A stretch of 48,370 nucleotides of DNA from an uncultured virus (IMG/VR IMGVR_UViG_3300005239_000257) (taxonomy: Duplodnaviria; Heunggongvirae; Uroviricota; Caudoviricetes; Crassvirales), in IMG/VR virus record IMGVR_UViG_3300005239_000257, one strand, 5' to 3'. Positions 2,769 through 48,008 of this stretch are shown one piece after another (positions within the stretch are counted from its first letter, which is position 1; every line of letters begins with the position of its first letter). The position numbers and the translations under genes are program-made. A model generated the notes under the pieces. The model saw only the letters and a program-made list of their open reading frames with translations, had not been told where the DNA came from and made no database searches.

Positions 2769-3209
2769 ATGAAACTTCCATCTAACGGCGTAGCAAAAGA
2801 ATTAAGACATTATATTGGTTCGTTATTTATATTTCTATTCGTAATAGGAATTATAATAGTACTGATACAATTTCCAGTGTTAGATACAAACAAAGAGGTG
2901 GTGATGATGCTAATAGGTACAATAAGTGCTAGCATCGGTATTGTAGTATCGACTATAACCGGGGCCAAACCCGATGACGTGACGGCTTTAAAAACGTCAT
3001 TAGAAAAAAAAGAACACCATATAGAGCTCTTAGTGTCTGCAAAAGACCAATTAGAGCAAATGGTTATAAATCTGCAGAAGCAGATGCTAGACAATCAAGA
3101 TGCAGTTATGGATAAAATAATATTGAAAGCGGCAATGGACTTTGACGACAAGAATAATCCGCCTAAATGTGAGTGTGGAGATAAAGATAAAAATGAATGT
3201 GAGTGTTAA
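2769..3209 (+). CDS. membrane protein, two TM helices plus coiled-coil C-terminus
   Basis: Hydrophobic segments YIGSLFIFLFVIGIIIVLI and VVMMLIGTISASIGIVVSTI, then heptad-like charged region and CEC..CEC tail. Confidence 0.75.
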   Translation: MKLPSNGVAKELRHYIGSLFIFLFVIGIIIVLIQFPVLDTNKEVVMMLIGTISASIGIVVSTITGAKPDDVTALKTSLEKKEHHIELLVSAKDQLEQMVINLQKQMLDNQDAVMDKIILKAAMDFDDKNNPPKCECGDKDKNECEC

Positions 3210-4574: not shown

Positions 4575-6152
4575 ATGGCACAATTCGGAGGCCCTAAAGT
4601 TGTCAAAAAATTACATTTTGATAATACGGCAAAAGATAAATTAACAATAGGTATAAATAAAATTGCAGATGCTGTTAGCTCTACATTAGGAGCTGGCGGT
4701 AAAAATGTAGTTATAGAAGATGACTTCGGTAATCCTCATGTTACAAAAGATGGGGTAACTGTAGCTAATTCTATAATGCTTATGGATCCAGTCGAAAACC
4801 TCGGCGTATCTATGATGAAACAAGCTGCACAACAGACAGCGAATATGGCAGGGGATGGCACCACCACCTCTATAGTGCTAACTCAGGCCATAATCGACTG
4901 TTATGATAAATTAAAAGGTAAAGAATTTTCTTTTAGAGATATAAAAAATGGAATAAATAAATTTAAAGATCATATATTAAAGTCTTTAGAAAAAAAATCC
5001 ATTGATGTTGATGATAAAAAGCTAAATGATGTTTCTGTTATATCAGCAAACAACGATATAGAACTAGGTACTTTAATAGCTGATGCTTTTAGAAAAGCAG
5101 GTGAAAACGGTATTGTTGCTATGGAAACATCTTCTACTAATGATACATATGTAGATACAGTAGAGGGAACTAAGTTAAACTCTTATAGTAAAACACCACA
5201 TTTTTATACAAATAAAGAAAAAGAAGTATCAGAACTGGAAAAACCGCTTGTATTTATAAGTGCATCGGATATTCCAAACGTTAGAAAAATTCAGGACATC
5301 TTAGAGCATGCTATTAAGTCAAATCGTAGCATACTACTTATTGCTCCCCTAGAGTCGCAGCCACTTACGGCACTAGCGATGAATATGGTTAAGGGTAATA
5401 TTAAGGTCAATGTAATAGATCCACCTAGCTTCGGACTTAAGCGTAAGGACATACTTGAAGATCTAGCATTGCTTGTCGGGGCTAAAGTTTTTGACGAAAG
5501 CCTCGGGGACTCGATTGATTCGATAACCCCCGACATGTTAGGAGAAGCTGATAGAGCTATCTCAGACAAAGAAGGTACAGTTTTAGTCATTTCAGAAAAA
5601 TCTGAAGAGGCTTTAGAACGTATCGAGTATTTAAAATCTGCTCTTGAAAAAGAAGATCATCATGTGCTTACAAAGCATTTGAATGATCGACTTGCTTTAC
5701 TATGTGGAGGCGTGTCTATTATATATGTAGGCGCTGACACTGATGTAGAGTTAAAAGAAAAGCAAGACAGAGTAGATGACGCAGTTCATGCTGTTAAAGC
5801 CGCTAAAAAAGAAGGTATATTACCCGGTGGCGGTGTAGCATTAGCCTATATGGCACAAGATGATTGGCAAATGGAGCTTAATCAAGGGATGCTAAGAGGC
5901 GTAGACATACTAAAGGATGCTTTAGTGGTGCCATTTACCAAAATACTAGAAAATGCTGGTTTAGACCCAACGCTATATTCATTAGATGAGTGGGGTCAAG
6001 GCATTGATGTAACCTGTGGGTGTAATAAAAAAATGATAGAAGCAGGTATCATTGATCCTTTACTAGTAACTAAAAGTGCATTAAATAATGCAATATCTGT
6101 AGCTACTACCATTTTATCAACCGATTGTGTAATTTCAAACGTAAGAGAATAA
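4575..6152 (+). CDS. groEL: phage-encoded group I chaperonin GroEL (Cpn60)
   Basis: VTKDGVTVA, AGDGTTT ATP-binding motif, ISANND, GILPGGGVAL, GIIDP motifs; lacks the C-terminal GGM tail. Confidence 0.97.
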   Translation: MAQFGGPKVVKKLHFDNTAKDKLTIGINKIADAVSSTLGAGGKNVVIEDDFGNPHVTKDGVTVANSIMLMDPVENLGVSMMKQAAQQTANMAGDGTTTSIVLTQAIIDCYDKLKGKEFSFRDIKNGINKFKDHILKSLEKKSIDVDDKKLNDVSVISANNDIELGTLIADAFRKAGENGIVAMETSSTNDTYVDTVEGTKLNSYSKTPHFYTNKEKEVSELEKPLVFISASDIPNVRKIQDILEHAIKSNRSILLIAPLESQPLTALAMNMVKGNIKVNVIDPPSFGLKRKDILEDLALLVGAKVFDESLGDSIDSITPDMLGEADRAISDKEGTVLVISEKSEEALERIEYLKSALEKEDHHVLTKHLNDRLALLCGGVSIIYVGADTDVELKEKQDRVDDAVHAVKAAKKEGILPGGGVALAYMAQDDWQMELNQGMLRGVDILKDALVVPFTKILENAGLDPTLYSLDEWGQGIDVTCGCNKKMIEAGIIDPLLVTKSALNNAISVATTILSTDCVISNVRE

Positions 6153-16037: not shown

Positions 16038-16128
16038 ATGGCGTTAACAAAATTAACAAAGAACTTAATAGACGGAACTTTTGGTACCGAATGGGTATCA
16101 ACAATCCAGACAAGTAATTTTACAGCTG
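16038..16128 (+). repeat. near-identical 5' ends of paralogous fibre genes (second copy 18855-18945)
   Basis: 91 nt with two visible mismatches. Confidence 0.9.
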
Positions 16129-17255
16129 AAGCTGGTAAAGGTTATTTTGTTAACACAACTAGTCAAGTTTTATACGTAACCTTACCAGTGGGTGTTGTAG
16201 GTATGGAAATAATTATTCAAGACTATGCTGGTACTTTTGCAACTAATAAAGTTGTAATCCAAAGCAATGGTTCTGAAAAAATTCAAGGGGCTACTAATGA
16301 TGGTAAATTAACAACTAATAATGCTACAGCTACACTGGTATATCAAGATGCAACTAAAGGTTGGACAGGACAAGATGTAAGTTTAGTGCCACTAGAAACA
16401 TCAGTAGAATATTTAGTTGTTGCTGGTGGTGGCGGTGGTGGCAAAGGCTCTGGAGGCGGAGGCGGTGGTGCTGGAGGTTATAGAACTAATTTTGGTGGAA
16501 CCGCTGTAACTTTAAATGATAGTACAAATTATGTAGTTACTATAGGTGGTGGAGGGGCTGGTTCAACATTAGCAGCTTCAAGACCTGGGAACGGAAGTGA
16601 TTCAGTTTTTAATACTATTACATCTGCTGGAGGCGGAGGTGGTGGTTGTGAAGGAGGTGGAATAGGAAATGGTGTCAGCGGTGGATCCGGTGGTGGGGGT
16701 AATTTTGGAGATTCTGGTGCATCTGGGAATACGCCATCAACAACACCTAGTCAAGGTAGTAGTGGAGGTTCAGGTGCATCTGGTCCGCCTTCAAGTTATT
16801 CTGGAGGTGGAGGTGGAGGAGCTTCTGCAAATGGAGGTGGCGCTAGTGGTGGTACTGGAGGAAATGGTGGTAATGGTGCTTCAAATTCAATAACTGGTTC
16901 CGCAGTAACATACGCCGGCGGTGGTGGTGGTGGAAGCCAAGATGGCGGTAACCCTGGAACATTTGGAACAGGTGGTACAGGCGGTGGTGGAAATGGGATG
17001 CCATATCACGGGGGGACTCCTGTTGCACCCACATCAGCTCAAAATGGAACTGTAAATACTGGAGGTGGTGCTGGGGGAGGTGCGTCTTCGGATGGTACAT
17101 CTTCTCCTTCAGGAGGATCAGGTATAATTATATTACGCTATACAGATACTAAAACTTTAACTGCAACAGGAACACTAGTACAAAGTACAGCTACTGATGG
17201 AAGTTCAAAAGTAACAACCATTACTGCAGGAACAGGAAATATACAATTAAACTAA
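16038..17255 (+). CDS. glycine-rich tail fibre protein, copy 1
   Basis: MALTKLTKNLIDGTFGTEW N-terminus, GKGYFVNTT module, Gly-rich domain ending GSGIIILRY...GTGNIQ. Confidence 0.85.
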   Translation: MALTKLTKNLIDGTFGTEWVSTIQTSNFTAEAGKGYFVNTTSQVLYVTLPVGVVGMEIIIQDYAGTFATNKVVIQSNGSEKIQGATNDGKLTTNNATATLVYQDATKGWTGQDVSLVPLETSVEYLVVAGGGGGGKGSGGGGGGAGGYRTNFGGTAVTLNDSTNYVVTIGGGGAGSTLAASRPGNGSDSVFNTITSAGGGGGGCEGGGIGNGVSGGSGGGGNFGDSGASGNTPSTTPSQGSSGGSGASGPPSSYSGGGGGGASANGGGASGGTGGNGGNGASNSITGSAVTYAGGGGGGSQDGGNPGTFGTGGTGGGGNGMPYHGGTPVAPTSAQNGTVNTGGGAGGGASSDGTSSPSGGSGIIILRYTDTKTLTATGTLVQSTATDGSSKVTTITAGTGNIQLN

Positions 17256-17259
17256 TAAT

Positions 17260-17527
17260 ATGGCACATTATGCATTTTTAGATATGGCTAACGTAGTAAC
17301 CGAAGTAATAGTAGGTAGAAACGAAGGCGATACCAATACAAACTGGGAATTAGAATATCAAGATGTAAGAAAACAAGTTTGTAAAAGAACTTCTTACAAT
17401 ACACAAGGTGGTGTACACTCAGGTGATGGTACTCCATATAGAAAAAATTATGCAGGCATAGGATATACTTTTGACTATGCCCGCGATGCTTTTATTCCAC
17501 CTAAACCATATGCTAGCTGGACGCTAG
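17260..17527 (+). CDS. MAHYA-type fibre-associated protein, copy 1 (truncated by gap)
   Basis: Near-identical to 20104-20371; the fusion to the downstream sequence in the ORF track is across Ns. Confidence 0.8.
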
Positions 17528-17547
17528 NNNNNNNNNNNNNNNNNNNN
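17528..17547. other. assembly gap (N run)
   Basis: 20 Ns. Confidence 1.
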
Positions 17548-18855
17548 TTAGCGCCTGCAACTTTAACAGGTGGTACTGGTATTAATGTAACTACAAATTC
17601 ACCTAATAACTTTACTATAACTAATACTTTAGGTGCAGGTATTGATTGGGATACAACAATACAAACAGCTACTTTTTCAGCTAATCCAGGTAAAGGTTAT
17701 ATAGTTAATACAACTTCTGGACAAATTACAATAAATTTACCAGCAGGTGTTCCAGGTAATATAATTGGAATACAAGATTACGCGGGCACATTCAATACTA
17801 ATAAACTAATTATCAGTTCAAATGGGTCAGAAAAAATACAAGGTGATACTGATGATTATAAATGTGTAACTAAAGATGCTACGGTATATTTATTATATCA
17901 AGATGCTACTCAAGGATGGACTGCTGATAATATAATTACAAACGTTCCGCCTTTATTACATTTTTTAGTTGTGGCGGCTGGGGGAAGTAGTCCTGGTGGC
18001 GGTAACAATGGTTCAGCAAATGGTGGTGGTGGTGCTGGTGGTTTAAGAACAAGCTATGGAACTGTATCTCCTATAACAATTAGTGGAGGTAGCATGGAGT
18101 CAGCTCCAGAAGTTGTTGTTGGAACAAGTTATTCAATAACTGTAGGAGCTGGTGGAGCTACTAATGGTAATAATTCTACATTTTCAAACATAACATCTAC
18201 TGGCGGTGGTAAAGGTGCTATAAACAGTCAAAATCCAAGTCAAAATCCAGCTCCCGGATCAGATGGTGGTTCTGGTGGTGGTGGTGGTGGTCATTCTGCT
18301 GTTGCAACTTTAAATCCTGGTAGTGCTGTTTCAACACCTGTAGTTCAAGGTTTCGGCGGAGGTCCTTTACCTGCGGCTGGAAATGATTATAGTACATCAG
18401 GAGGTGGTGCTGGTGGAGCCGCGTCTTCTGGTACTGCTCCAGGTGGTTTAGGTTTAGTAGTAAATATATTAAACGCTACTAATGCTGCAACTGCTTCTGT
18501 TGGTGAAGTTTCTGGAAGTGATGTTTATTATGCTTCAGGAGGAGCTTCAGGTGGTTTAGGAGGTACTGGAAATGTAAATACATCTTTAGGAGGCGGTGGT
18601 AATGGTGGTAGTTATTATACAGCTCAAGGATATGGAGTAGCGGCTATAAACACAGGTGGAGGTGCGGGATCTTTAAGTAACAAAGCTTTCCCAGCAGAAA
18701 TTGGTGGCTCTGGAGTAGTTATATTAAGGTATCCAAGTTTATATACCGCTGCTATTCCAGGTGGTATTGTTGAAGCAACTGGTTCACCTTTTACAGAAGG
18801 AACAGAAAAAGTATCAGTATTTACAGGAGGAACAGGTAATATAACATTTAGCTAA
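17548..18855 (+). CDS. C-terminal part of a glycine-rich tail fibre (alternative 3' end of a 13658-like gene)
   Basis: Begins with the LAPATLTGG repeat shared with 13658, then GKGYIVNTT module and Gly-rich domain; 5' end missing. Confidence 0.75.
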   Translation, partial: LAPATLTGGTGINVTTNSPNNFTITNTLGAGIDWDTTIQTATFSANPGKGYIVNTTSGQITINLPAGVPGNIIGIQDYAGTFNTNKLIISSNGSEKIQGDTDDYKCVTKDATVYLLYQDATQGWTADNIITNVPPLLHFLVVAAGGSSPGGGNNGSANGGGGAGGLRTSYGTVSPITISGGSMESAPEVVVGTSYSITVGAGGATNGNNSTFSNITSTGGGKGAINSQNPSQNPAPGSDGGSGGGGGGHSAVATLNPGSAVSTPVVQGFGGGPLPAAGNDYSTSGGGAGGAASSGTAPGGLGLVVNILNATNAATASVGEVSGSDVYYASGGASGGLGGTGNVNTSLGGGGNGGSYYTAQGYGVAAINTGGGAGSLSNKAFPAEIGGSGVVILRYPSLYTAAIPGGIVEATGSPFTEGTEKVSVFTGGTGNITFS

Positions 18856-20099
18856 TGGCATTAACAAAATTAACAAAGAACTTAATAGACGGAACTTTTG
18901 GTACCGAATGGGTATCAACTATCCAGACAAGTAATTTTACAGCTGTAGCTGGAAAGGGTTATTTTGTTAATACTACCTCAGCAGAAATAACAGTTACATT
19001 ACCAGCAGGTGTTGTAGGTACTGAAATAATAATACAAGACTATGCTGGTACTTTTGCAACTAATGGCGTTATATTTACTGCTAATGGCTCTGAAAAGATT
19101 CAAGGAGTTACTGATAGTTTTAAATGTGTAACAAATAATGCTACCGTAACTATTATATACCAAGATGCAACTAAAGGATGGACTGCAGATAACATATCAA
19201 CAACTAACGTTCCTTTAACGTTTGACTATTTAGTAGTTGCTGGCGGTGGCGGCGGCGGAAGTGCAGGAGGCGGCGGTGCAGGTGGTTTATTAACCGGTAC
19301 ATATACTTTTTCACTTGCTACAAACTATAATTTAACTATTGGTGGTGGTGGTGGTGGTGCTACGCAAGCAGGAAATGGAGTAACAAATGGAAATAATGGA
19401 ACTAGTACTTCTTTAGCATCTATTGCTGTTGCTGTAGGCGGCGGAGGTGGTGGACGTTATTCTGGAAGTAGTGGTAGTAGTTCACCTGGAGTAAATGGTG
19501 GATCTGGAGGTGGCGCTGGATGGCCAGCTAGTACAGGAGGTTCTTCAACCACAGGTCAAGGAAGCAATGGTGGTAATTCAATTAGCTCAAGTACTAGTGT
19601 TTACGTTGCGGCAGGCGGTGGTGGAGCTGGAGGTGTAGGATTAAGTGATTCAGGAAATAATTCAGGAGATGGTGGAATAGGAGTTTCTTCAAGTATTAAT
19701 GGAACAACGCACTACTGGGCCGGAGGAGGCGGTGGCGGAAATCAAAGGCCAACAGGTGCTGCCGGTAATGGTGGAAACGGCGGTGGCGGAGGAGGTGCTG
19801 GTTATTATGCAACAGCTACAGCCGGAACAGGTGGTGCTGGTTTAAATGCGGGTGGATCAGGCACTTTATACGACGTATATGGATCCTCTGTTGGTGGAAA
19901 TGGAGGAGATAACACTGGAGGTGGTGGTGGAGGTATGGCTATTTCTGTTACTACTGGAGGAAATGGAGGATCAGGTGTTATAATACTTCGTTATCCTAAC
20001 AATTTTACAATATCTGGACTATCTGGAACAACTACTACATCAGGTTCATATAAAATTACAACATTTACATCAGGAACTGGAAACATACAATTTAACTAA
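18855..20099 (+). CDS. glycine-rich tail fibre protein, copy 2
   Basis: Paralog of 16038 with near-identical N-terminus and divergent Gly-rich domain. Confidence 0.85.
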   Translation: MALTKLTKNLIDGTFGTEWVSTIQTSNFTAVAGKGYFVNTTSAEITVTLPAGVVGTEIIIQDYAGTFATNGVIFTANGSEKIQGVTDSFKCVTNNATVTIIYQDATKGWTADNISTTNVPLTFDYLVVAGGGGGGSAGGGGAGGLLTGTYTFSLATNYNLTIGGGGGGATQAGNGVTNGNNGTSTSLASIAVAVGGGGGGRYSGSSGSSSPGVNGGSGGGAGWPASTGGSSTTGQGSNGGNSISSSTSVYVAAGGGGAGGVGLSDSGNNSGDGGIGVSSSINGTTHYWAGGGGGGNQRPTGAAGNGGNGGGGGGAGYYATATAGTGGAGLNAGGSGTLYDVYGSSVGGNGGDNTGGGGGGMAISVTTGGNGGSGVIILRYPNNFTISGLSGTTTTSGSYKITTFTSGTGNIQFN

Positions 20100-27350: not shown

Positions 27351-27776
27351 ATGAGTGATAAAAAGAAACCCTTTAAAGATACAGGTGTCGGACGGTTTTT
27401 AATCGAAAAGGCACCAAGTATTCTAGGAATGGTCGGCGACGCAATATTGCCGGGAAATGTAATATCAGAACTAATTAGTGGTAACTCTCAGCTTTCAGAA
27501 AGCGATAAACAAGTTGCACTAGAAAAGTTAAGAATAGAAAGAGCCGAAATTGATGGCACAACCAAAAGATGGGTAGCAGATGCTCGAAGCGGAAACTGGC
27601 TTGCGTCCAACGTCCGACCATTGGTTCTTGTATTTTTAACAATATCATATGTTATAGGGTGGTACGCCGGCTATTCACTGGAATCAGTGACTTCATTATT
27701 AACTATAGTCATAGGAGGCTATTTTGGATCTCGCGGCGTCGAGAAGGTATTTGGAAATAATAAACATAAACAATGA
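27351..27776 (+). CDS. putative holin (3TM / GTA-holin-like)
   Basis: RW.AD..S..WL..NVRP motif, two C-terminal TM helices, GGYFGSRG.EK; upstream of endolysin. Confidence 0.8.
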   Translation: MSDKKKPFKDTGVGRFLIEKAPSILGMVGDAILPGNVISELISGNSQLSESDKQVALEKLRIERAEIDGTTKRWVADARSGNWLASNVRPLVLVFLTISYVIGWYAGYSLESVTSLLTIVIGGYFGSRGVEKVFGNNKHKQ

Positions 27777-27925
27777 TAGAACAAGATTTTAAAATCTTTG
27801 GAATTAACGTAGGAGCAATGATATTTTCAGTAATACCTGAAATAAACACAATACTACAGACGGTAGTTTTATTGTTATCGATAGGATACACAATATTAAT
27901 GATACTAAAGAAATCAAAAGAATAA
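27773..27925 (+). CDS. small membrane protein (50 aa), holin/antiholin candidate
   Basis: Manual translation MIEQDFKIFGINVGAMIFSVIPEINTILQTVVLLLSIGYTILMILKKSKE; ATGA overlap; lies between holin and endolysin. Confidence 0.7.
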   Translation: MIEQDFKIFGINVGAMIFSVIPEINTILQTVVLLLSIGYTILMILKKSKE

Positions 27926-27929
27926 TACA

Positions 27930-28274
27930 ATGAAACATTTTAATGAATCTGAATTTAATAACTTTGACAAAATGGACCCTAAGCTCCTTGAGATGCTAGA
28001 TAATCTTAGAGAAGCATATGGATATCCAATTACATTAACATCAACATACAGATCACCTCAACATCCAATAGAGGCGCGTAAGTCTAAACCTGGTGAGCAT
28101 ACTTATGGTGCTGCTGTAGATATGGCGTGTTCAGGAGGTGAAGCTACTTATAGATTAGTTAAAGCTGCAATTGAAGTAGGTTTTAAAAGAATAGGTATAA
28201 GTAGAAAAAATAACTTTGTTCATGTGGGTATAGGTTATGATGGCGCTCCGCCAATGACTATATGGACATACTAA
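27930..28274 (+). CDS. peptidase M15-family endolysin
   Basis: ITLTSTYR, H-x6-D zinc motif (HTYGAAVD), RIGI...FVHV. Confidence 0.88.
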   Translation: MKHFNESEFNNFDKMDPKLLEMLDNLREAYGYPITLTSTYRSPQHPIEARKSKPGEHTYGAAVDMACSGGEATYRLVKAAIEVGFKRIGISRKNNFVHVGIGYDGAPPMTIWTY

Positions 28275-29093: not shown

Positions 29094-29301
29094 AAAAGCA
29101 TTAGTTGAATTAGATAAAGTTATAAGACAAAAAATTGATTTAGTTGAACTAGATCCTGAAAAAGCAAAAACAGCAGCTCAAGCTAAATGGGTTGCTATAG
29201 AAGATTCTTTAAAAATAGTTGAAAAAATAGAGCAATTAACAGAAACAAAAAGCGACAAAGAAACAAAAACTTTTTTAGGTGTTGAAAATAGAATTAAGTA
29301 A
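29059..29301 (+). CDS. putative terminase small subunit / hypothetical
   Basis: Helical 80-aa protein immediately upstream of and coupled to terL. Confidence 0.45.
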   Translation: MDRRQKIVQAAEKALVELDKVIRQKIDLVELDPEKAKTAAQAKWVAIEDSLKIVEKIEQLTETKSDKETKTFLGVENRIK

Positions 29302-31532
29302 TGTATAAGCAGACTTTATATACTATTGATAGACAGCACTTAGCTGATAAAAAAATTAAACACACTAATAAGCATAAAAACTTTGCATATGGTTATAATG
29401 AAGATTTAGACTGTGTTATAATAAGCAAAGACGGTACTTTAGGTGATATATATAATATTCAAGGTCTTAAGGTAGGATTACCTCAAACTCCAACTAAAAT
29501 AGATGGAAAAGATCTTAATAATAAAGAACAATATTTTAAAATACCAAATAAACCAGAATCTTTAAACAAAATAAAAACTATATATGATTTTCAAAATTGT
29601 TCAGAAGATATTAAAGAAAAATACTATAGTTATATTGATGTTGAATTTAACTGTAGGGATGTTGGTTATTGGTTCATGTGCAACGGTGAAGCGAACTACA
29701 TTACAGGATCGCACTATGTCTATCTCACTTGGACAAAGATCGACGTGGGAGCACCAGACTTTAGACAGGCGAATAGAATCTTTTATTACTTCTGGGAGGC
29801 ATGTAAGGCAGATAAAAGATCTTATGGAATGTGCTACCTCAAGAATAGACGGTCTGGCTTTAGCTTCATGGCATCCTCAGAGACTGTTAACTTGGCAACA
29901 ACTTCCAAGGACTCTAGATTTGGGGTCTTATCTAAAACTGGAGCAGATGCAAAGAAGATGTTTACAGACAAGATTGTACCCATATCGATCAACTATCCAT
30001 TTTTTTTCAAACCAATACAGGATGGGATGGAACGACCAAAGACGGAGCTATCCTATAAGATACCGTCAAGAAGACTTACCAGAAACGCCATTAAAGAAAA
30101 CTATAGTCAGGAGGAATTTGGGCAGGGGCTCGACACCACGATCGACTGGAAGAATACGGGAGACAACTCGTATGATGGAGAAAAGTTACAACTCCTCGTC
30201 CATGATGAATCGGGTAAATGGGAGAGGCCGGACAATATACTCAACAACTGGAGGGTCACAAAGACGTGCCTCAGGCTTGGAGCACGAATAGTAGGGAAAT
30301 GTATGATGGGATCTACATCTAATGCTTTAGCAAAAGGTGGAGATAACTTTAAAAAATTATTTTATAATTCAGATGTTACAAACAGAAATCGCAATGGCCA
30401 GACTGCAAGTGGATTATATTCTTTGTTCATACCTATGGAGTGGGGATACGAAGGTTTTATCGATAAGTTCGGATATCCTGTCTTCGACACACCAACAGAA
30501 CCGCTTGAAGGAATTGATGGAGAAAAAATTTTTAACGGAGTCATCGATCATTGGGAAAATGAAGTAGAAGGATTAAAGCACGATAGTGATGCTTTAAATG
30601 AATACTATAGACAATTTCCAAGATCTGAAAAACATGCATTTAGAGATGAAACAATTAATTCTTTATTTAATCTAACTAAAATATACGAACAAATAGATTT
30701 TAATGAAGAAATGACAATGGCTGGTCATGTTGTTCAAGGTACTTTTTCTTGGAAAAATGGAATAAAAGATACTGAAGTCATATGGATACCCAGTAAAAAT
30801 GGTAGATTTAAAGTGGCTTGGATACCACCAGTTAATATACAAAATAATAGTATTTTAAAAAATGGTTTAAAATATCCTGGCAACAAAGGCTTAGGTGCTT
30901 TTGGATGTGATTCATATGATATATCAGGAACAGTTAGTGGCAGCGGATCTAACGGTGCATTGCACGGACTAACAACATTTTCAATGGTTAGTGATGTTCC
31001 TAACAGTAAGTTTTTTTTAGAATATGTAGCTAGACCTCAAACCGCTGAAATATTTTTTGAAGAAGTATTAATGGCATTAGTATTTTATGGTATGCCAATA
31101 CTTGCAGAAAACAATAAACCTAGATTATTATATCATTTAAAAAGAAGAGGTTATAGAGGTTATTCAATGAATAGGCCAGATAAGTTAGTTGGTAATTTAT
31201 CTAAAACAGAACTAGAACTAGGAGGTATTCCTAACTCTTCAGAAGATATAAAACAAGCTCATGCTGCTGCTATAGAATCTTATATAGAAGAATATGTGGG
31301 TGCATTTAATGAAAACCATGGTAACATGTTTTTTCAAAGAACATTAGAAGACTGGGCTAAATTTGATATATCAAAAAGAACAGCATATGATGCTTCAATA
31401 AGTAGTGGCTTAGCTATAATGGCATGTCGAAAACATTTATATCGCCCAAGAGCGGAAAGAACAGTTAAAAAACTTGATTTTGCATTTTCAAAATATAAAA
31501 ATGAAGGATCAAGAAGTGAGTTAATAAAATAA
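29301..31532 (+). CDS. terL: terminase large subunit
   Basis: Walker A-like KNRRSGFS, Walker B LLVHDESGKW, motif III GSTSN, nuclease GCDSYD and YDASIS; precedes portal. Confidence 0.92.
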   Translation: MYKQTLYTIDRQHLADKKIKHTNKHKNFAYGYNEDLDCVIISKDGTLGDIYNIQGLKVGLPQTPTKIDGKDLNNKEQYFKIPNKPESLNKIKTIYDFQNCSEDIKEKYYSYIDVEFNCRDVGYWFMCNGEANYITGSHYVYLTWTKIDVGAPDFRQANRIFYYFWEACKADKRSYGMCYLKNRRSGFSFMASSETVNLATTSKDSRFGVLSKTGADAKKMFTDKIVPISINYPFFFKPIQDGMERPKTELSYKIPSRRLTRNAIKENYSQEEFGQGLDTTIDWKNTGDNSYDGEKLQLLVHDESGKWERPDNILNNWRVTKTCLRLGARIVGKCMMGSTSNALAKGGDNFKKLFYNSDVTNRNRNGQTASGLYSLFIPMEWGYEGFIDKFGYPVFDTPTEPLEGIDGEKIFNGVIDHWENEVEGLKHDSDALNEYYRQFPRSEKHAFRDETINSLFNLTKIYEQIDFNEEMTMAGHVVQGTFSWKNGIKDTEVIWIPSKNGRFKVAWIPPVNIQNNSILKNGLKYPGNKGLGAFGCDSYDISGTVSGSGSNGALHGLTTFSMVSDVPNSKFFLEYVARPQTAEIFFEEVLMALVFYGMPILAENNKPRLLYHLKRRGYRGYSMNRPDKLVGNLSKTELELGGIPNSSEDIKQAHAAAIESYIEEYVGAFNENHGNMFFQRTLEDWAKFDISKRTAYDASISSGLAIMACRKHLYRPRAERTVKKLDFAFSKYKNEGSRSELIK
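29584..30291 (+). CDS. candidate overprinted lipoprotein in +1 frame of terL
   Basis: 235 stop-free codons; Lys-rich n-region, hydrophobic h-region, VIGS|C at codon 32; terL codons here avoid creating +1 stops. Confidence 0.5.
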   Translation: MIFKIVQKILKKNTIVILMLNLTVGMLVIGSCATVKRTTLQDRTMSISLGQRSTWEHQTLDRRIESFITSGRHVRQIKDLMECATSRIDGLALASWHPQRLLTWQQLPRTLDLGSYLKLEQMQRRCLQTRLYPYRSTIHFFSNQYRMGWNDQRRSYPIRYRQEDLPETPLKKTIVRRNLGRGSTPRSTGRIRETTRMMEKSYNSSSMMNRVNGRGRTIYSTTGGSQRRASGLEHE

Positions 31533-35269: not shown

Positions 35270-36867
35270 ATGGCTTTTACAGCAGGCATACCAGCCGCTT
35301 TACAACCAACCCAAACTAAAGCAATGTACGGTGGAAACTACATTAATTTCACTGATCCTAACTTTAGTCAATGGACACAACAATTTTTACCAGACGTATA
35401 CGAAAAAGAAGTAGAAAGATATGGAAATCGTTCTATAGGTTCTTTCCTTCGTATGGTGTCTGCGGAGATGCCTTCAACATCAGATCAAATAATCTGGACT
35501 GAGCAAGGTAGATTACATACAAGATATGCAAATGTTATTCCTCGAGGTACAGCAGGAGTAATGCCAGCAGCAGGAGGTGGACAAGCAGTTATTGCTGCAG
35601 CCGCTGCCGCGGGTGGTGTACTAAACTTTGAAATACCAGTTGCTCAACCAGCAAGTGTAGGCCTAACAGCTTCACCAGGCAATACAGTAACTTGTAATTT
35701 TAGAATAGGACAAACAGTAATGGTACAAGTTCAAACTTCAGCTACATCAGCAGTTGGTGGAACTGGCGCTGTTATTAAAGGTGTTGTTACTAATGTTGGA
35801 GTTGGCGCAGGTGCTACAGGAGAAGGACAAATGTTCCAGATTCAAGCATACGCATCTCACGCACAAATTGCAGCAGCGTCTAGAGTTACAGCAATCGTTT
35901 ATGGTTCTGAATTTGCTAAAGGTACAGGAAACTTTACTGAAAAGCTTGATCCAGGATACGCTACGTTTGCAAATGCTCCTATCATTTTAAAAGAAAACTA
36001 TCAAATAAATGGTTCTGATACAGCTCAGATCGGTTGGATTGAAGTTACTTCTGAAAATGGAGCTGGTGGATATTTATGGTATGTTAAATCAGAGCATGAA
36101 AATAGACTACGTTGGGAAGATTATCTTGAAATGTCTATGGTTGAAGGTGTTACAAAAGTAACTGGTGGTGCTAATATTCCACTAGGTACATTTGGCGGAT
36201 CTTTAGCTACACAAAATGCTAGAGGTACTGAAGGTTTCTTTGCGGCTCTTGAAGCACGAGGAAATGTATATCAAGGATTTGGATCTCAAGCAGCTGCACA
36301 AGCAGGTGGTGGAGCATTAACAGATTTTGATGCGGTACTTAAGCAATTAGACAAGCAAGGAGCAATGAAGAAAACATGCTTTTCTTAAATCGTGAACTTT
36401 CTTTAGAAATTGATGATATTCTTGCAATGCAAAATGGTGCATATGCTGGAACAGCTAATCACGCTCATGGTACATCTTATGGTGTATTTAATAATAGTGC
36501 TGATATGGCTCTTAACTTAGGATTCACAGGATACCGAAGAGGTTCTTATGACTTTTACAAAACTGACTGGAAATATTTAAATGACTGGTCAACTCGTGGA
36601 GGTTTTGGAGACATTGAAGGTGTATTAATTCCTGCAGGAACTTCTACAGTTTACGATCAACAATTAGGTCAAAACATCAAGCGACCATTCTTACACATTA
36701 GATATAGAGCTTCAGAAACTGAAAACCGTAAAAACAAATCTTGGATTACAGGATCTGTTGGAACTGGTTCTCCAACTTCTGATATTGATGAAATGAAACT
36801 TAACTACTTAAGTGAAAGATGTCTTATCACTCAAGCGGCTAATAACTTTGTTTTATTCAAAGCTTAA
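35270..36867 (+). CDS. major capsid protein, split by a single frameshift near 36366
   Basis: QQFLPDVYEKEVERYGNR, GWIEV, GGYLWY, RGTEGFF in part 1; LNLGFTGYRRGSYDFYK, YLSERCL in part 2; one added base restores ...KQGA-I-EENMLFL (~532 aa). Confidence 0.85.
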
Positions 36868-45291: not shown

Positions 45292-46455
45292 ATGGAATAC
45301 AATCCACAAGAAGCTCTTCAGAAAACAAGTCCTGAACAGCAAATTATTAGAGCCGCAAGAAACGTTGAGTATGATAGAAAGTTTAAAAAATCAGCTGAAG
45401 ATAGATTAAACCAAGAAAATCCTACACCACAAGGTGTTTTTAAAGTTCAAAGTCAAGCTGTAGCTAGAGAAATAGTTGGTAAAGCAAATGATTTAGTAAA
45501 TAAAAAAGGCAAAGGTGAAATTAGTAATGCTGATTTTGCTGCTCAAATGGCTATGGTTAATCAAATGGTTGGCAATTTAAGCAATTTTACTAAAACAACT
45601 GAAGATAATTTAGCTTTATATAATGATATGTTAAAGAATGGTACTTTATCATATGGTATGGATCAGCACGAAGAATCTGTTTTACAAGCTATTGATAGAG
45701 GAGATGTTAAACTAGCTTTAGACAAAGAAGGTAGAGTTAAAATGGAAGGCGTTGGTAAACATCCAACAAAAGGCAAATTTGATATAAACATATATGATTT
45801 TATTAATATACCTAAACCATTTAGAAAAATAAAACCAATAAATCTTTTAGTAGATCCTTTTGTAAAAAATTTAGGTTTAGATGAAAATGGTATGCCAAGG
45901 GCTAGAACTAATGAAAATGGTCAATTAGTTTATGATTCAGGTGATTTTGCTGAACACGATAAAGAAGTTTTAGATTTTACATTAGATGCTTTAGAAAATG
46001 TAGGACCAGAAGGAGTTAGATCTTTTTTAGGAGATCATTTAAATATACCTAACGAACAAATAAAAGGTTTAGCAGAAGACGTAAACTTTGTTGATGAAAA
46101 TGGAGTTGAATTTGAGGATGCAGCGCAAGCAGAAGCATTTAAAAATTTAAATGGTTACATGGGTAATAAATATACCCGCCAGGTTAGACCACATCCAGAT
46201 ACTATAGCAAGTCAAGCTTCACAATCAGCAGCTAACATAGCAGCTAATAAACAAGTATCATTACCTGTTCAAGAGCAAGTTCAAGCACAAGAAACAGAAG
46301 TAATGGAAACACCGCAAGGTGTTGTAGCTGAAACGGAAACTGAAGATGTAACTATGCCAAACGTAGCTGAAACAATGTTTGATGTTTCTGCAGAATCTTC
46401 GCCTGTAAAAATGAAAGAACTTTCTGCTGCTGATTTAATTAAAAAATATTCTTAA
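45292..46455 (+). CDS. putative internal virion protein
   Basis: 387-aa ORF in ejection-protein position. Confidence 0.6.
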   Translation: MEYNPQEALQKTSPEQQIIRAARNVEYDRKFKKSAEDRLNQENPTPQGVFKVQSQAVAREIVGKANDLVNKKGKGEISNADFAAQMAMVNQMVGNLSNFTKTTEDNLALYNDMLKNGTLSYGMDQHEESVLQAIDRGDVKLALDKEGRVKMEGVGKHPTKGKFDINIYDFINIPKPFRKIKPINLLVDPFVKNLGLDENGMPRARTNENGQLVYDSGDFAEHDKEVLDFTLDALENVGPEGVRSFLGDHLNIPNEQIKGLAEDVNFVDENGVEFEDAAQAEAFKNLNGYMGNKYTRQVRPHPDTIASQASQSAANIAANKQVSLPVQEQVQAQETEVMETPQGVVAETETEDVTMPNVAETMFDVSAESSPVKMKELSAADLIKKYS

Positions 46456-47286
46456 TGAGTTTAGAAACAATTGTAAGTAAAATGATAGCGGCTAATGAGC
46501 CAGAATCTAATATTGCAAAAGTTATAAAATATCATAAAAAAGATAACAGTAAAATAAACTGTGAAAAATGCGATCATAGCTGGAAAGTGTCTGAAGGAGG
46601 AAATGATTTATATATGTGCCATGAATGTGGTCATAACAATAACAAAAGTCCATTAAAAGCAGTTGGAACTTGTCCTGATGGATCAGAGCCTGATGAATTT
46701 GGAAAATGTAATGAAGAAAAAGTTACTAACGAGCAAACTTTACAAGAAAATATAACAGAAGAAAAAATTCCTGAAAACCCTGTTTTGACTGAAAAGAAAA
46801 AAAGGTTTAAAAAAGGTAAATTTTTGATGTCTGAAAAAGATCAAGCTAAAGAATTTTCTGAAACAGGAACTGTAACTCCAACTAAAAAAGAAAGTGAAGA
46901 CTATACTCAAAAACTTTTTGAAGAAAGTGAAGAAGGTAAAAGATTAAAATTAAACTCAGACAATTATTTTAAAGACAAAGATTCTTTTTTAATATCAGGA
47001 GGTAAGCCTGGAGAAAAAAATATAGATAAATTTGGTCAACAATCATTAAACGATTTAGTTTCTAATGATGAAACTATAAAAAAAATAGTTAATGATGCTC
47101 AAAACGATCCTAATAATTTAAACTTAGTAAATAAAAAATCTGAAGAACTTAAGACTAAATATGATATAAAAAATTCTTTTAACAATATTTATACAAAAGT
47201 TCAAAAAGAAAATGAATCTGCTATAAATAATTTTGCTGCTGAAACGTATAAAAAAGTAGGTTTAGGTAATTTAATAGATGGTACAC
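46455..47286 (+). CDS. N-terminal fragment of a large putative internal virion protein with zinc-ribbon motif
   Basis: CEKC...CHEC motif, SPLKA, Lys/Glu-rich; truncated by gap. Confidence 0.65.
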
Positions 47287-47336
47287 NNNNNNNNNNNNNN
47301 NNNNNNNNNNNNNNNNNNNNNNNNNNNNNNNNNNNN
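47287..47336. other. assembly gap (N run), probable scaffold mis-join
   Basis: 50 Ns joining unrelated protein types. Confidence 0.95.
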
Positions 47337-48008
47337 AATCAAGGTTACGGTGGCGGCTCTGCATCAAATTCTGGGAGTGCAGATGGTGCTAGTGGTGGTG
47401 GTGGTGGTGCGCAAGCAGTTGGTACTAATGGTGTTGGAACTGTTTATGGATCTGGTGGATCTGGATTAAATGTAAATATTATAAATAGCACAAACGCTAC
47501 AACCGCATCAGTTGGTCAGGTTAGTGGATCAAATGTTTATTATAGTGGTGGTGGAGGTGCTGGAGGATGGGATACATATGGTCAAACTCTTGGTTCTCCA
47601 GGATTAGGTGGTGGAGGTGCTGGTGGATTAGATTATGCTGGAACTGCTGGTACTCCTAATACTGGTGGTGGAGGTGGATCTGGAGATCAAGGTCCCGGAG
47701 CACCTCACGGTGGAGCTGGCGCAGGAGGTTTACGTACATCATTTGGAAGTTCATCTGGAGGAGGATCATCAGCAGAATCATCATTAAATATGTTTATAGC
47801 TTCAAATTATCTTGTTACAGTAGGGGCCGGAGGAACAACTGCTAGTTCTTATGGCGGTGCTGGTGGTTCTGGAGTAGTAATATTGCGTTATCCTAAAGCA
47901 TACACTGTTTCAGGTTTAACAGAAGCAACAGGATCACCATTTACAGAAGGAACAAGCAAAGTATCAGTATTTACAGCAGGAACAGGTAACATACAATTTA
48001 ACTTATAA
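47337..48008 (+). CDS. C-terminal fragment of another glycine-rich tail fibre variant
   Basis: Shares VNI.N.TNA.TASVG.VSGS.VYY and EATGSPFTEGT.KVSVFT.GTGNI with 17548-18855. Confidence 0.75.
   Translation, partial: NQGYGGGSASNSGSADGASGGGGGAQAVGTNGVGTVYGSGGSGLNVNIINSTNATTASVGQVSGSNVYYSGGGGAGGWDTYGQTLGSPGLGGGGAGGLDYAGTAGTPNTGGGGGSGDQGPGAPHGGAGAGGLRTSFGSSSGGGSSAESSLNMFIASNYLVTVGAGGTTASSYGGAGGSGVVILRYPKAYTVSGLTEATGSPFTEGTSKVSVFTAGTGNIQFNL

Follow-up and report, generated by a model that had tools for sequence, protein, structure and literature searches.

Overprinted genes are already known as a class in phages, and several described systems lie close to the one considered here. In phage lambda, the whole of Rz1 lies within the late gene Rz, in its +1 frame, and it encodes an outer-membrane lipoprotein spanin (o-spanin) with a positively charged n-region, a hydrophobic run and a Cys. 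The mature protein has about 40 amino acids (aa), and its post-Cys part is short and Pro-rich. The phiX174 E gene, like other overprinted lysis genes of small phages, originated in the +1 frame within an essential gene, and its product consists of an N-terminal hydrophobic helix followed by a basic, poorly constrained remainder. Small phage-encoded lipoproteins such as T5 Llp and Cor serve in superinfection exclusion or receptor masking. An Ltp-type phage lipoprotein for superinfection exclusion is described in the abstract of PMC3952083. Here we analyze a 48,370-nucleotide (nt) stretch of DNA, called the window, which is IMG/VR record IMGVR_UViG_3300005239_000257 of an uncultured Crassvirales virus and in which a 235-codon open reading frame (ORF) is nested in the +1 frame of terL, the gene for the large terminase subunit. 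We consider it likely, from the evidence given below, that nucleotides 29584 to 30291 represent a genuine gene overprinted on the part of terL that encodes the ATPase domain, and that its product would be a late accessory protein targeted to the envelope. The narrower proposition that the ORF is a real, translated gene appears highly probable. The gene was previously unannotated, both in this uncultured marine-type phage and in many of its relatives. The features on which the argument depends are as follows, where GC3 denotes the G+C fraction at third codon positions.

29301..31532, + strand: terL, large terminase subunit, 743 aa, host gene (frame 0), PHROG 6681
29584..30291, + strand: nested ORF with ATG start, 235 codons plus TAG, in the +1 frame of terL at an offset of 283 nt
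29584..29676, + strand: signal-peptide-like N terminus with a Lys-rich n-region (net charge +4) and uncharged residues 13 to 35 spanning Cys32
29673..29684, + strand: lipobox-like site, where terL TTC-ATG-TGC-AAC is read in the +1 frame as Ser31-Cys32-Ala33-Thr34 (Cys32 at 29677 to 29679), under synonymous constraint
29680..30288, + strand: polar, basic tail of 203 aa (37 Lys plus Arg, 17 Asp plus Glu, isoelectric point 11.2) with no second hydrophobic segment
29640..30290, + strand: GC3-rich tract of terL (GC3 of 0.51 over 29680 to 30288, versus 0.16 in the remaining terL)
30289..30294, + strand: tandem +1 TAG TAG closing the nested ORF, with further +1 stops at 30304 and 30328

The resemblance to Rz1 includes the complete embedding in a late gene and the layout of the N terminus, as well as a post-Cys part that is predicted to be unstructured (for Rz1, in the accessible text of PMC6139136; here, by AlphaFold2) and a record of being missed routinely by gene callers. 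Unlike Rz1, the nested gene has a terminase ATPase gene as its host rather than the gene for an inner-membrane spanin (i-spanin), no partner for it was found, its lipobox is non-canonical, its post-Cys part is a basic segment of 203 aa, and no sequence similarity links the two. With phiX174 E and its kind it shares a +1-frame origin within an essential gene. It is set apart from E by its residence in a double-stranded DNA tailed phage that has a holin and an endolysin of its own and by a product of 235 aa where those of the E type have fewer than about 100. On this comparison the nested gene matches Rz1 and phiX174 E in genetic architecture, as a +1-frame gene in an essential late gene whose product would be membrane-targeted, while belonging to neither family. 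Lipoproteins of the T5 Llp, Cor and Ltp type offer a third parallel in that they combine a signal and Cys at the N terminus with an accessory, frequently lost gene. However, those are stand-alone genes for small folded domains, to which no similarity was detected in Pfam, PHROGs, NCBIfam or PADLOC, and expression of the nested gene would be late, unlike theirs, because it lies within terL.

The preliminary description of this locus had placed a 235-codon ORF in the +1 frame of terL, and its coordinates, frame and length are as it gave them. The +1 frame lacks stops for 238 codons (29575 to 30291). Every one of the 42 +1 stops in terL lies outside this run, and the +2 frame contains 103. Stops at 29563 and 29572 immediately precede the run, and those at 30289, 30292, 30304 and 30328 lie at or just past its end. 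The nine pairs in which a C-ending codon had been said to avoid a +1 stop are likewise all present (29724, 29739, 29838, 29988, 30129, 30195, 30240, 30255 and 30270). An A at the end of a Leu, Ile or Val codon of terL would make a +1 TAA or TAG if the next codon starts with A or G, and within the tract these codons end in A in 0 of 20 cases before such codons versus 8 of 13 before codons starting with C or T (Fisher p = 9e-5). Downstream of the tract, the same test reveals no contrast (28 of 46 versus 19 of 27, p = 0.46).

When the synonymous codons inside the tract were shuffled with codon usage kept, the +1 frame acquired a mean of 6.55 stops (standard deviation 1.45, minimum 1) and was stop-free in 0 of 20,000 trials. 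Protection is confined to this one frame, since the +2 frame of the tract holds 24 stops where 18.1 are expected. Shuffles of the whole terL gene in blocks of 60 codons, in which the longest run in any of the five alternative frames was recorded, reached 238 codons in 0 of 1,000 trials, with a maximum of 217. None of the other 35 of the 36 genes tested has an alternative-frame run longer than 121 codons, and only the gene at 35270 to 36388 came near to exceeding its own shuffles (an 89-codon run, 3 of 200). The nested ORF is thus longer than chance given the terL protein and local codon usage, and it is unique in this respect among the 36 genes.

The ORF also coincides with the sole sustained GC3-rich tract in the 36 window genes. 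In 30-codon blocks along terL, GC3 rises from values of 0.03–0.10 to values of 0.37–0.67 over approximately 29640 to 30290, and then falls to 0.13. The median over 458 such blocks in the 36 genes is 0.13, and only ten blocks reach 0.37, of which seven are in terL and six are inside the ORF. Outside terL, blocks with a GC3 of at least 0.40 occur only at 2949 to 3038 and 5295 to 5564 (0.43, 0.40 and 0.47), and the genes that hold them have no significant alternative-frame ORF.

Such a tract raises the question of whether the ORF is a non-coding by-product of GC-rich DNA, arising through recombination with a higher-GC donor, through conserved RNA structure or through local codon bias. Many GC-rich patches exist in the window, a long ORF is likelier in GC-rich sequence, and the overlap as a whole shows no overall synonymous constraint. 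However, the other GC-rich patches owe their composition to codon positions 1 and 2 (GC1 and GC2) and have a GC3 of only 0.03 to 0.30, and with local codon usage kept, no shuffle opened the frame. Nor does RNA folding set the tract apart: its fold z-score is +0.45, 14 of 20 shuffles fold as well or better, and Rfam has no match for it. Together with the comparison of relatives that follows, these observations exclude recombination, RNA structure and GC content alone as the source of the open frame, and we regard a by-product of any of the three kinds as exceedingly improbable.

Relatives were collected from at least 80 IMG/VR loci among the matches listed (62–90% terL identity) and from two GenBank phages, making 82, of which 78 cover the region and were codon-aligned through the terL protein. 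Our comparisons between groups ignore kinship among these relatives, and their p values are uncorrected for relatedness, which lessens what they can contribute to the case for a genuine gene. At least 195 open +1 codons are kept by 18 of the 78 listed relatives and 130 to 194 by another 16, while 44 keep no more than 113; all but three of these 44 carry 6 to 18 +1 stops. A quick tree built from 413 columns outside the overlap separates three clades. The ORF is present in every member of clade A (15 sequences including the window), four of them with a shortened form, is never present in clade B (15 listed) and is patchy in clade C (48 listed). In the 11 ORF-bearing representatives, Leu, Ile and Val codons end in A in 1 of 193 contexts that risk a +1 stop versus 96 of 159 safe contexts (p = 6e-42). 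In 19 ORF-less representatives the figures are 191 of 380 and 154 of 266 (p = 0.065), so that the avoidance of +1 stops in aligned terL sequences is confined to the carriers.

Three further comparisons separate the ORF from its base composition. ORF-less relatives in which the patch has a high GC3 throughout (L029–L031, L001, L017 and L024; 0.41 to 0.60) nonetheless carry 7 to 14 +1 stops in the tract. In 19 loci where the ORF starts at alignment columns 232 to 256 and ends early, at columns 370 to 444, GC3 is 0.28 to 0.52 inside the ORF and at the baseline of 0.15 to 0.30 from the locus's own +1 stop to column 478, where the full-length form ends. Counted over each locus's own ORF, GC3 is 0.28 to 0.54 inside and 0.15 to 0.33 past the stop. 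Finally, the terL protein identity to the window within the tract is 0.805 in clade C sequences with the ORF and 0.791 in those without it, which argues against a transferred tract. Because of the stops in high-GC3 relatives, the equal tract identity and the fall of GC3 at each locus's own stop, the ORF is not a simple result of GC content or of a transferred tract. Instead, the fact that stop avoidance and the GC3 shift are conserved and track the length of the ORF at each locus argues for a real overprinted gene over a chance ORF. The same series indicates that the gene has been truncated or lost repeatedly among the relatives. Per-locus shuffles of the longest run were made post hoc and were not used, as a 99-codon run without a rise in GC3 gave 2 of 5,000.

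The reading frames are arranged such that the third positions of terL codons are the second codon positions of the nested gene, and consequently each third-position change that is synonymous in terL alters the nested protein. The rise in GC3 extends to codons whose second base is A, C or G; such codons are unable to create +1 stops. T-ending terL codons are halved in ORF-bearing sequences, and hydrophobic residues in the +1 frame are thereby halved. Relative to the same columns in ORF-less sequences, Leu falls from 16.1 to 10.3%, Ile from 9.0 to 5.0% and Val from 7.9 to 2.8% of +1 residues. In turn, Arg rises from 4.5 to 11.7%, Ser from 3.9 to 9.1%, Thr from 6.6 to 11.5% and Pro from 1.7 to 4.8%, and Gly increases as well. 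Thus, the elevated GC3 of terL follows from keeping the tail of the nested product polar.

This composition is familiar from other viruses. In the accessible part of Pavesi et al. (2018, PMC6195259), proven viral overlapping genes are enriched in C+G and in Arg, Ser and Pro, are depleted of A/T, of TA and TT dinucleotides and of Ile, and are characterized by disorder-promoting residues. The rise in Arg, Ser, Thr and Pro and the drop in Ile of the nested ORF match this signature, and the younger frame is fast-evolving in both cases. That dataset comprises viruses whose expression is proven, which distinguishes it from the present case; here, the signature is seen to come and go with the ORF across natural relatives. 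Overall, the substitution pattern indicates that selection acts on the open frame, on the polar character of the tail and on the exact residues around a hydrophobic and Cys-containing motif, and not on the tail sequence.

That motif lies at the N terminus of the nested product, which reads MIFKIVQKILKKNTIVILMLNLTVGMLVIGSCATVK. Residues 1 to 12 hold four Lys, and residues 13 to 35 (23 residues) are uncharged and hydrophobic. The layout is kept in 22 of 24 aligned products, where an N-terminal flank of charge +2 to +7 is followed by 15 to 30 uncharged residues with a Cys. The mean hydrophobicity of the 13-mer at the N terminus is 2.81 in ORF-bearing sequences (n = 34) versus 1.70 in ORF-less ones (n = 40; p = 5e-11, kinship ignored). 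Constraint on single codons is evident at the Cys. The terL codons TTC, TGC and AAC are identical in 15 of 15 clade A sequences, in a region where terL is otherwise AT-rich at third positions, and ORF-less L001, which encodes the same terL WFMCNG, has TTT, TGT and AAT instead. They are three of only four invariant G/C-ending codons in 152 clade A columns, and their adjacency has a probability of about 0.001. A TTT in place of TTC would give Leu, not Ser, beside the Cys.

In clade C the corresponding module is located 14 codons further 3′, and in 9 of 14 sequences an ATG precedes it. The +1 run L-L-I/T-L-L-V-L-I is encoded by eight consecutive terL codons, each of which has a third-position T in 9 to 14 of the 14 ORF-bearing sequences (at least 11 at seven of the eight columns). 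Past this run, T-C-T-C-S results from codons that have a C or G at the third position, a rare choice, in 12 to 14 of 14. Where clade C sequences lack the ORF, endings at these columns are mixed, often with a stop. In clade C sequences such as L009, counting by hand from the Met places the first Cys at residue 32 once more. The terL protein itself accommodates the nested ORF at the Cys codon. A terL Cys codon at 29679 occurs only in clade A and L001, and the other clades have Asn or Lys. In those of them that keep the preceding Met (ATG AAT or ATG AAC), the +1 frame reads TGA.

A small residue at position -1 is kept by selection in both clades, as Ser through TTC in 15 of 15 clade A sequences and as Thr through TAC in 12 to 14 of 14 clade C sequences, which fits the need of a cleavage or lipidation site. 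Export or lipidation is favored because the signal-like, Cys-ended segment is the one part under site-specific synonymous constraint. We therefore consider that the N terminus probably functions as an export or anchor signal. Whether it specifies a true lipoprotein in clade A, the clade of the window, is closely balanced, with the odds slightly against it. The lipoprotein N terminus proposed in the preliminary description accordingly stands in part. The Lys-rich n-region, the hydrophobic h-region and a Cys under constraint are all present, but the site itself is not a canonical lipobox.

Several observations weigh against a genuine gene for an envelope protein. The strict lipobox consensus given in the available text of Kongari et al. 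(2018, PMC6139136) is [LVI][ASTVI][GAS]C. The window's I-G-S-C departs from it by Gly at -2 and clade C LITCTCSG by Thr at -1; among 73 full-length homologues in the databases, 0 conform to it. The Cys is, moreover, dictated by Met-Cys or Met-Tyr dipeptides of terL. A looser, PROSITE-like lipobox pattern fits all of the clade A products (9 of 9) and none of those from clade C (0 of 15). The start context is middling. On a position weight matrix from 38 gene starts, ATG 29584 scores -2.0 in an A-rich context, at the 85th percentile of 895 internal ATGs but only the 18th percentile of the 38 true starts. Bacteroidota genes are not known to carry Shine–Dalgarno sites.

Synonymous constraint in the overlap holds locally, at the N-terminal hydrophobic and Cys motif, but not over its full length. 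Normalized synonymous divergence in ORF-bearing representatives is 0.817 in the overlap versus 0.828 downstream, and in ORF-less representatives it is 0.917 versus 0.937. Corrected inside-to-outside ratios for 14 closer pairs range from 0.34 to 2.09, with a median of about 0.93, and invariant codons make up a smaller share of clade A columns in the overlap (16 of 152) than beyond it, downstream (52 of 227). The tail sequence thus appears to drift almost freely, in a near-neutral manner, which counts against a folded, sequence-specific domain. Database searches are equally unhelpful to the reading. The product belongs to no family in Pfam, PHROGs, NCBIfam or PADLOC, and recognition by the ESM Atlas was low (1562; best score 0.87) and yielded no family. 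A tblastn search of the product against 50,697 phage records, cultured relatives included, gave no match and hence no cultured carrier. The sole row returned in the family searches, KfrC (E 0.1, 12.8 bits versus a cut-off of 99), was taken as chance.

Homologues do exist in metagenomic data, where 61 unnamed proteins match the nested product and a profile search of 1.84 billion representatives gave 156 matches at E ≤ 0.001. Four of the database proteins (P0026, P0052, P0053 and P0061) are chimeras of the terL and nested frames. Such proteins speak for a rival reading, in which the ORF is not an independent gene and a programmed frameshift fuses the N terminus of TerL to a +1 tail, and fusions of this kind are possible in that both frames are open. 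However, each chimera changes frame at a position of its own, four in all, and the changes run both ways. Assembly indels would look like this and are the simplest explanation, the chimeras staying open because both frames are open. A frameshift also gives no account of the ATG that lies three codons after the last upstream +1 stop, in the same column throughout clade A, of the selected signal-like N terminus that starts at that ATG, or of the clade C module 14 codons further 3′, which again follows an ATG in 9 of 14 sequences. We consider a frameshift product very improbable.

The remainder of the nested product is a polar tail for which no structure is confidently predicted. An AlphaFold2 model from a 24-row alignment has a mean predicted local distance difference test (pLDDT) score of 41. 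A helix spans residues 2 to 51, with pLDDT values of 69 to 80 over the first 30 residues, and values are below 50 for residues 42 to 235. On this model the tail is probably disordered. Its net charge is +15 to +24 in 15 of 18 forms of at least 181 aa (+10 to +24 in 17 of 18).

A tail of this kind is consistent with a translated protein whose N-terminal helix is not an export signal and which remains in the cytoplasm, where the Arg-rich tail would bind nucleic acid or the packaging machinery. The net charge of +20 in a sequence rich in Arg, Ser, Thr and Gly, the many basic residues after the hydrophobic segment, the lack of a confidently predicted structure and the co-expression with terminase that is expected from the location of the gene are in agreement with such a role. 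Yet in 20 of 24 homologues the flank preceding the uncharged stretch is more positive than the 15 residues past it, an arrangement oriented like that of a signal peptide, and the constraint is focused on the hydrophobic run and on the small residues beside the Cys. In addition, high charge is not conserved, as six forms of 155 to 164 aa have tails of only +2 to +6. A cytoplasmic role consequently seems decidedly unlikely, and export to the envelope remains the reading that we favor.

The preliminary description had suggested a spanin-like lysis lipoprotein or an exclusion lipoprotein. On the spanin reading, the product would be an outer-membrane lipoprotein spanin, either an Rz1-like o-spanin or a unimolecular spanin (u-spanin), that completes the holin–endolysin cassette. 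The gene is embedded in a +1 frame, as is Rz1, has a constrained lipobox-like motif and a tail without a confidently predicted structure, and sits in the late region 1.3 kb from the endolysin gene (holin, 27351 to 27776; M15 endolysin, 27930 to 28274). No recognizable spanin was seen in the 6 kb upstream, either in the window or in 43 relatives. According to the accessible text of Kongari et al. (PMC6139136), embedded o-spanins often go unannotated, and 91 of 677 phages of Gram-negative hosts are without an identified spanin.

The locus nevertheless differs from a spanin gene in most particulars. Its host gene is terL, and no i-spanin-like partner, with an N-terminal transmembrane domain and a coiled coil, was found. 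The 73-, 195- and 80-aa ORFs between the endolysin gene and terL show no hydrophobic N terminus on reading, and no i-spanin-like gene was found upstream in the 43 relatives. The post-Cys part of 203 aa is long for an o-spanin of the Rz1 type, the Cys motif departs from the strict lipobox, and the gene is positioned outside the holin–endolysin cassette. A u-spanin of the T1 gp11 type is excluded because the tail is without a C-terminal hydrophobic segment; its top 19-mer hydropathy is 0.45, and values do not exceed 1.22 in 24 homologues. Many lineages, moreover, have lost the gene or keep a truncated one, and no substitute for it was seen in their upstream DNA. We therefore did not retain the proposed spanin-like lysis lipoprotein, and we judge a spanin of either type to be improbable.

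The envelope-targeted accessory product would be made and act as follows. Initiation would occur internally at ATG 29584 on a late mRNA. Residues 1 to 31, comprising the Lys-rich start, the hydrophobic helix and then Gly-Ser before Cys32, could serve as the export signal, and would be followed by about 200 polar, strongly basic and probably disordered residues. Late in infection, the product would enter the inner membrane or be exported across it, and lipid modification at Cys32 is possible in clade A. It may then serve as a dispensable accessory factor at the envelope, where its conceivable tasks include helping lysis and providing exclusion or protection. A lysis-related function is conceivable but rather doubtful, and a function in exclusion or protection is unlikely when taken by itself. 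More speculatively, and with low probability, this de novo protein on terminase ATPase sequence might be the missing outer-membrane-disruption factor of a group of Bacteroidota-type phages that have no recognizable spanin, with a lipid anchor at Cys32 and a cationic tail reaching across the periplasm. If so, a 32-residue Met-to-Cys module would have been rebuilt 14 codons away in the sister clade, such that the module is preserved and not its sequence.

Our full-text literature searches turned up no earlier account of a gene lying inside a terminase gene. The terL gene is a highly conserved and much-used marker of tailed phages, and a long, well-supported overlapping gene (235 codons) inside it lies where annotation pipelines never look. 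The series of full, shortened and lost versions shows an overlapping gene reshaping the codon usage of its host gene, with the imprint decaying once the gene is lost. A simple screen for other hidden genes is to look in AT-rich phage genes for an island of high GC3 together with context-dependent codon choice. Should the product act at the envelope, it would bear on a poorly understood question, how Bacteroidota phages get through or alter the outer membrane.

Downstream of the nested ORF, terL holds another element with a distinct conservation pattern.

30384..30404, + strand: conserved motif CGC AAT GGN CAG ACT, which contains rare codons and lies about 100 nt beyond the end of the nested ORF

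In the motif region, normalized synonymous divergence is 0.50 to 0.58 in ORF-bearing representatives versus 0.96 to 1.00 in ORF-less ones. Of 35 loci with at least 130 open codons, 24 carry the motif, as do 8 of 48 with fewer (Fisher p = 2.6e-6, kinship ignored), and in clade A four invariant G/C-ending codons cluster at 30399 to 30447. It coincides with the start codon of another short +1 ORF, of 57 aa in the window (M-A-R-L-Q-V-D-Y-I-L-C-S-Y-L-W...; region 30378 to 30567). The +1 stretch there is open for 27 to 107 codons in all loci examined, ORF-less ones included, and for at least 65 in most. The motif could represent a second nested gene or a regulatory element, and its tie to the nested gene is uncertain. 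A second dip in synonymous divergence occurs within terL at 31023 to 31143, where ORF-bearing sequences have 0.59 to 0.67 versus 0.94 to 1.02 for ORF-less sequences.

The identity of the host gene is well supported by PHROG 6681, "terminase large subunit", which matches residues 24 to 740 with an E value of 4.4e-162. A tblastn search with terL matched 89 phage records, and a sequence search of the PDB gave nothing at E ≤ 1. The frame-0 aa identity of terL is highest within the overlap (0.82 to 0.83 versus 0.72 to 0.75 downstream). The closest deposited phages are an uncultured podovirus genome (60% aa identity), Flavobacterium "elemo" phages (44%) and Cellulophaga phages (36–38%). Because the nearest phages include those of Flavobacterium and Cellulophaga, the host of this phage is likely to belong to the Flavobacteriia.

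The window is AT-rich, with a GC content of 0.342, and every long ORF lies on the + strand. A P22-like portal gene follows terL. Upstream, the order is a holin gene (PHROG 3427), a gene for a 50-aa two-helix membrane protein, the M15 endolysin gene and then genes for proteins of 73 aa, 195 aa (GroES-like) and 80 aa. The 50-aa ORF (27773 to 27925) has two hydrophobic helices, lies between the holin and endolysin genes, is kept in 11 upstream regions (cluster c6) and likely encodes a second holin or an antiholin. None of the upstream gene clusters in the window and the 43 relatives follows the presence of the nested ORF, and the sole lipobox-like ORF among them is in L146. One of these clusters (c3), with 31 copies, encodes acidic, coiled-coil-like proteins of 80 to 105 aa in almost every clade B or C relative whose upstream sequence extends far enough. 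It is found about 1.0 to 1.35 kb upstream of terL (loci L088–L161), mostly right upstream of the block of 73-aa, GroES-like and 80-aa genes. It is absent from the six clade A genomes and occurs independently of the nested ORF.

Elsewhere in the window, GC-rich patches at 16038 to 17255, 17260 to 18855, 18855 to 20099 and 46455 to 48008 (GC up to 0.54) have a GC2 of up to 0.93; these four patches outside terL reflect the amino acid composition of probable structural proteins, not hidden frames. Three runs of N total 922 bases, and the overlapping ORFs of 339, 296 and 423 aa at 1296 to 2613 are artefacts of an N run read as X. Far from the lysis cassette, a 72-aa ORF at 266 to 484 has no family in PHROGs or NCBIfam. 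It carries the LLTSC GSVK sequence to which the preliminary description had likened the nested N terminus. With this canonical lipoprotein signal and a Lys/Glu-rich end, its product is a candidate small phage lipoprotein.

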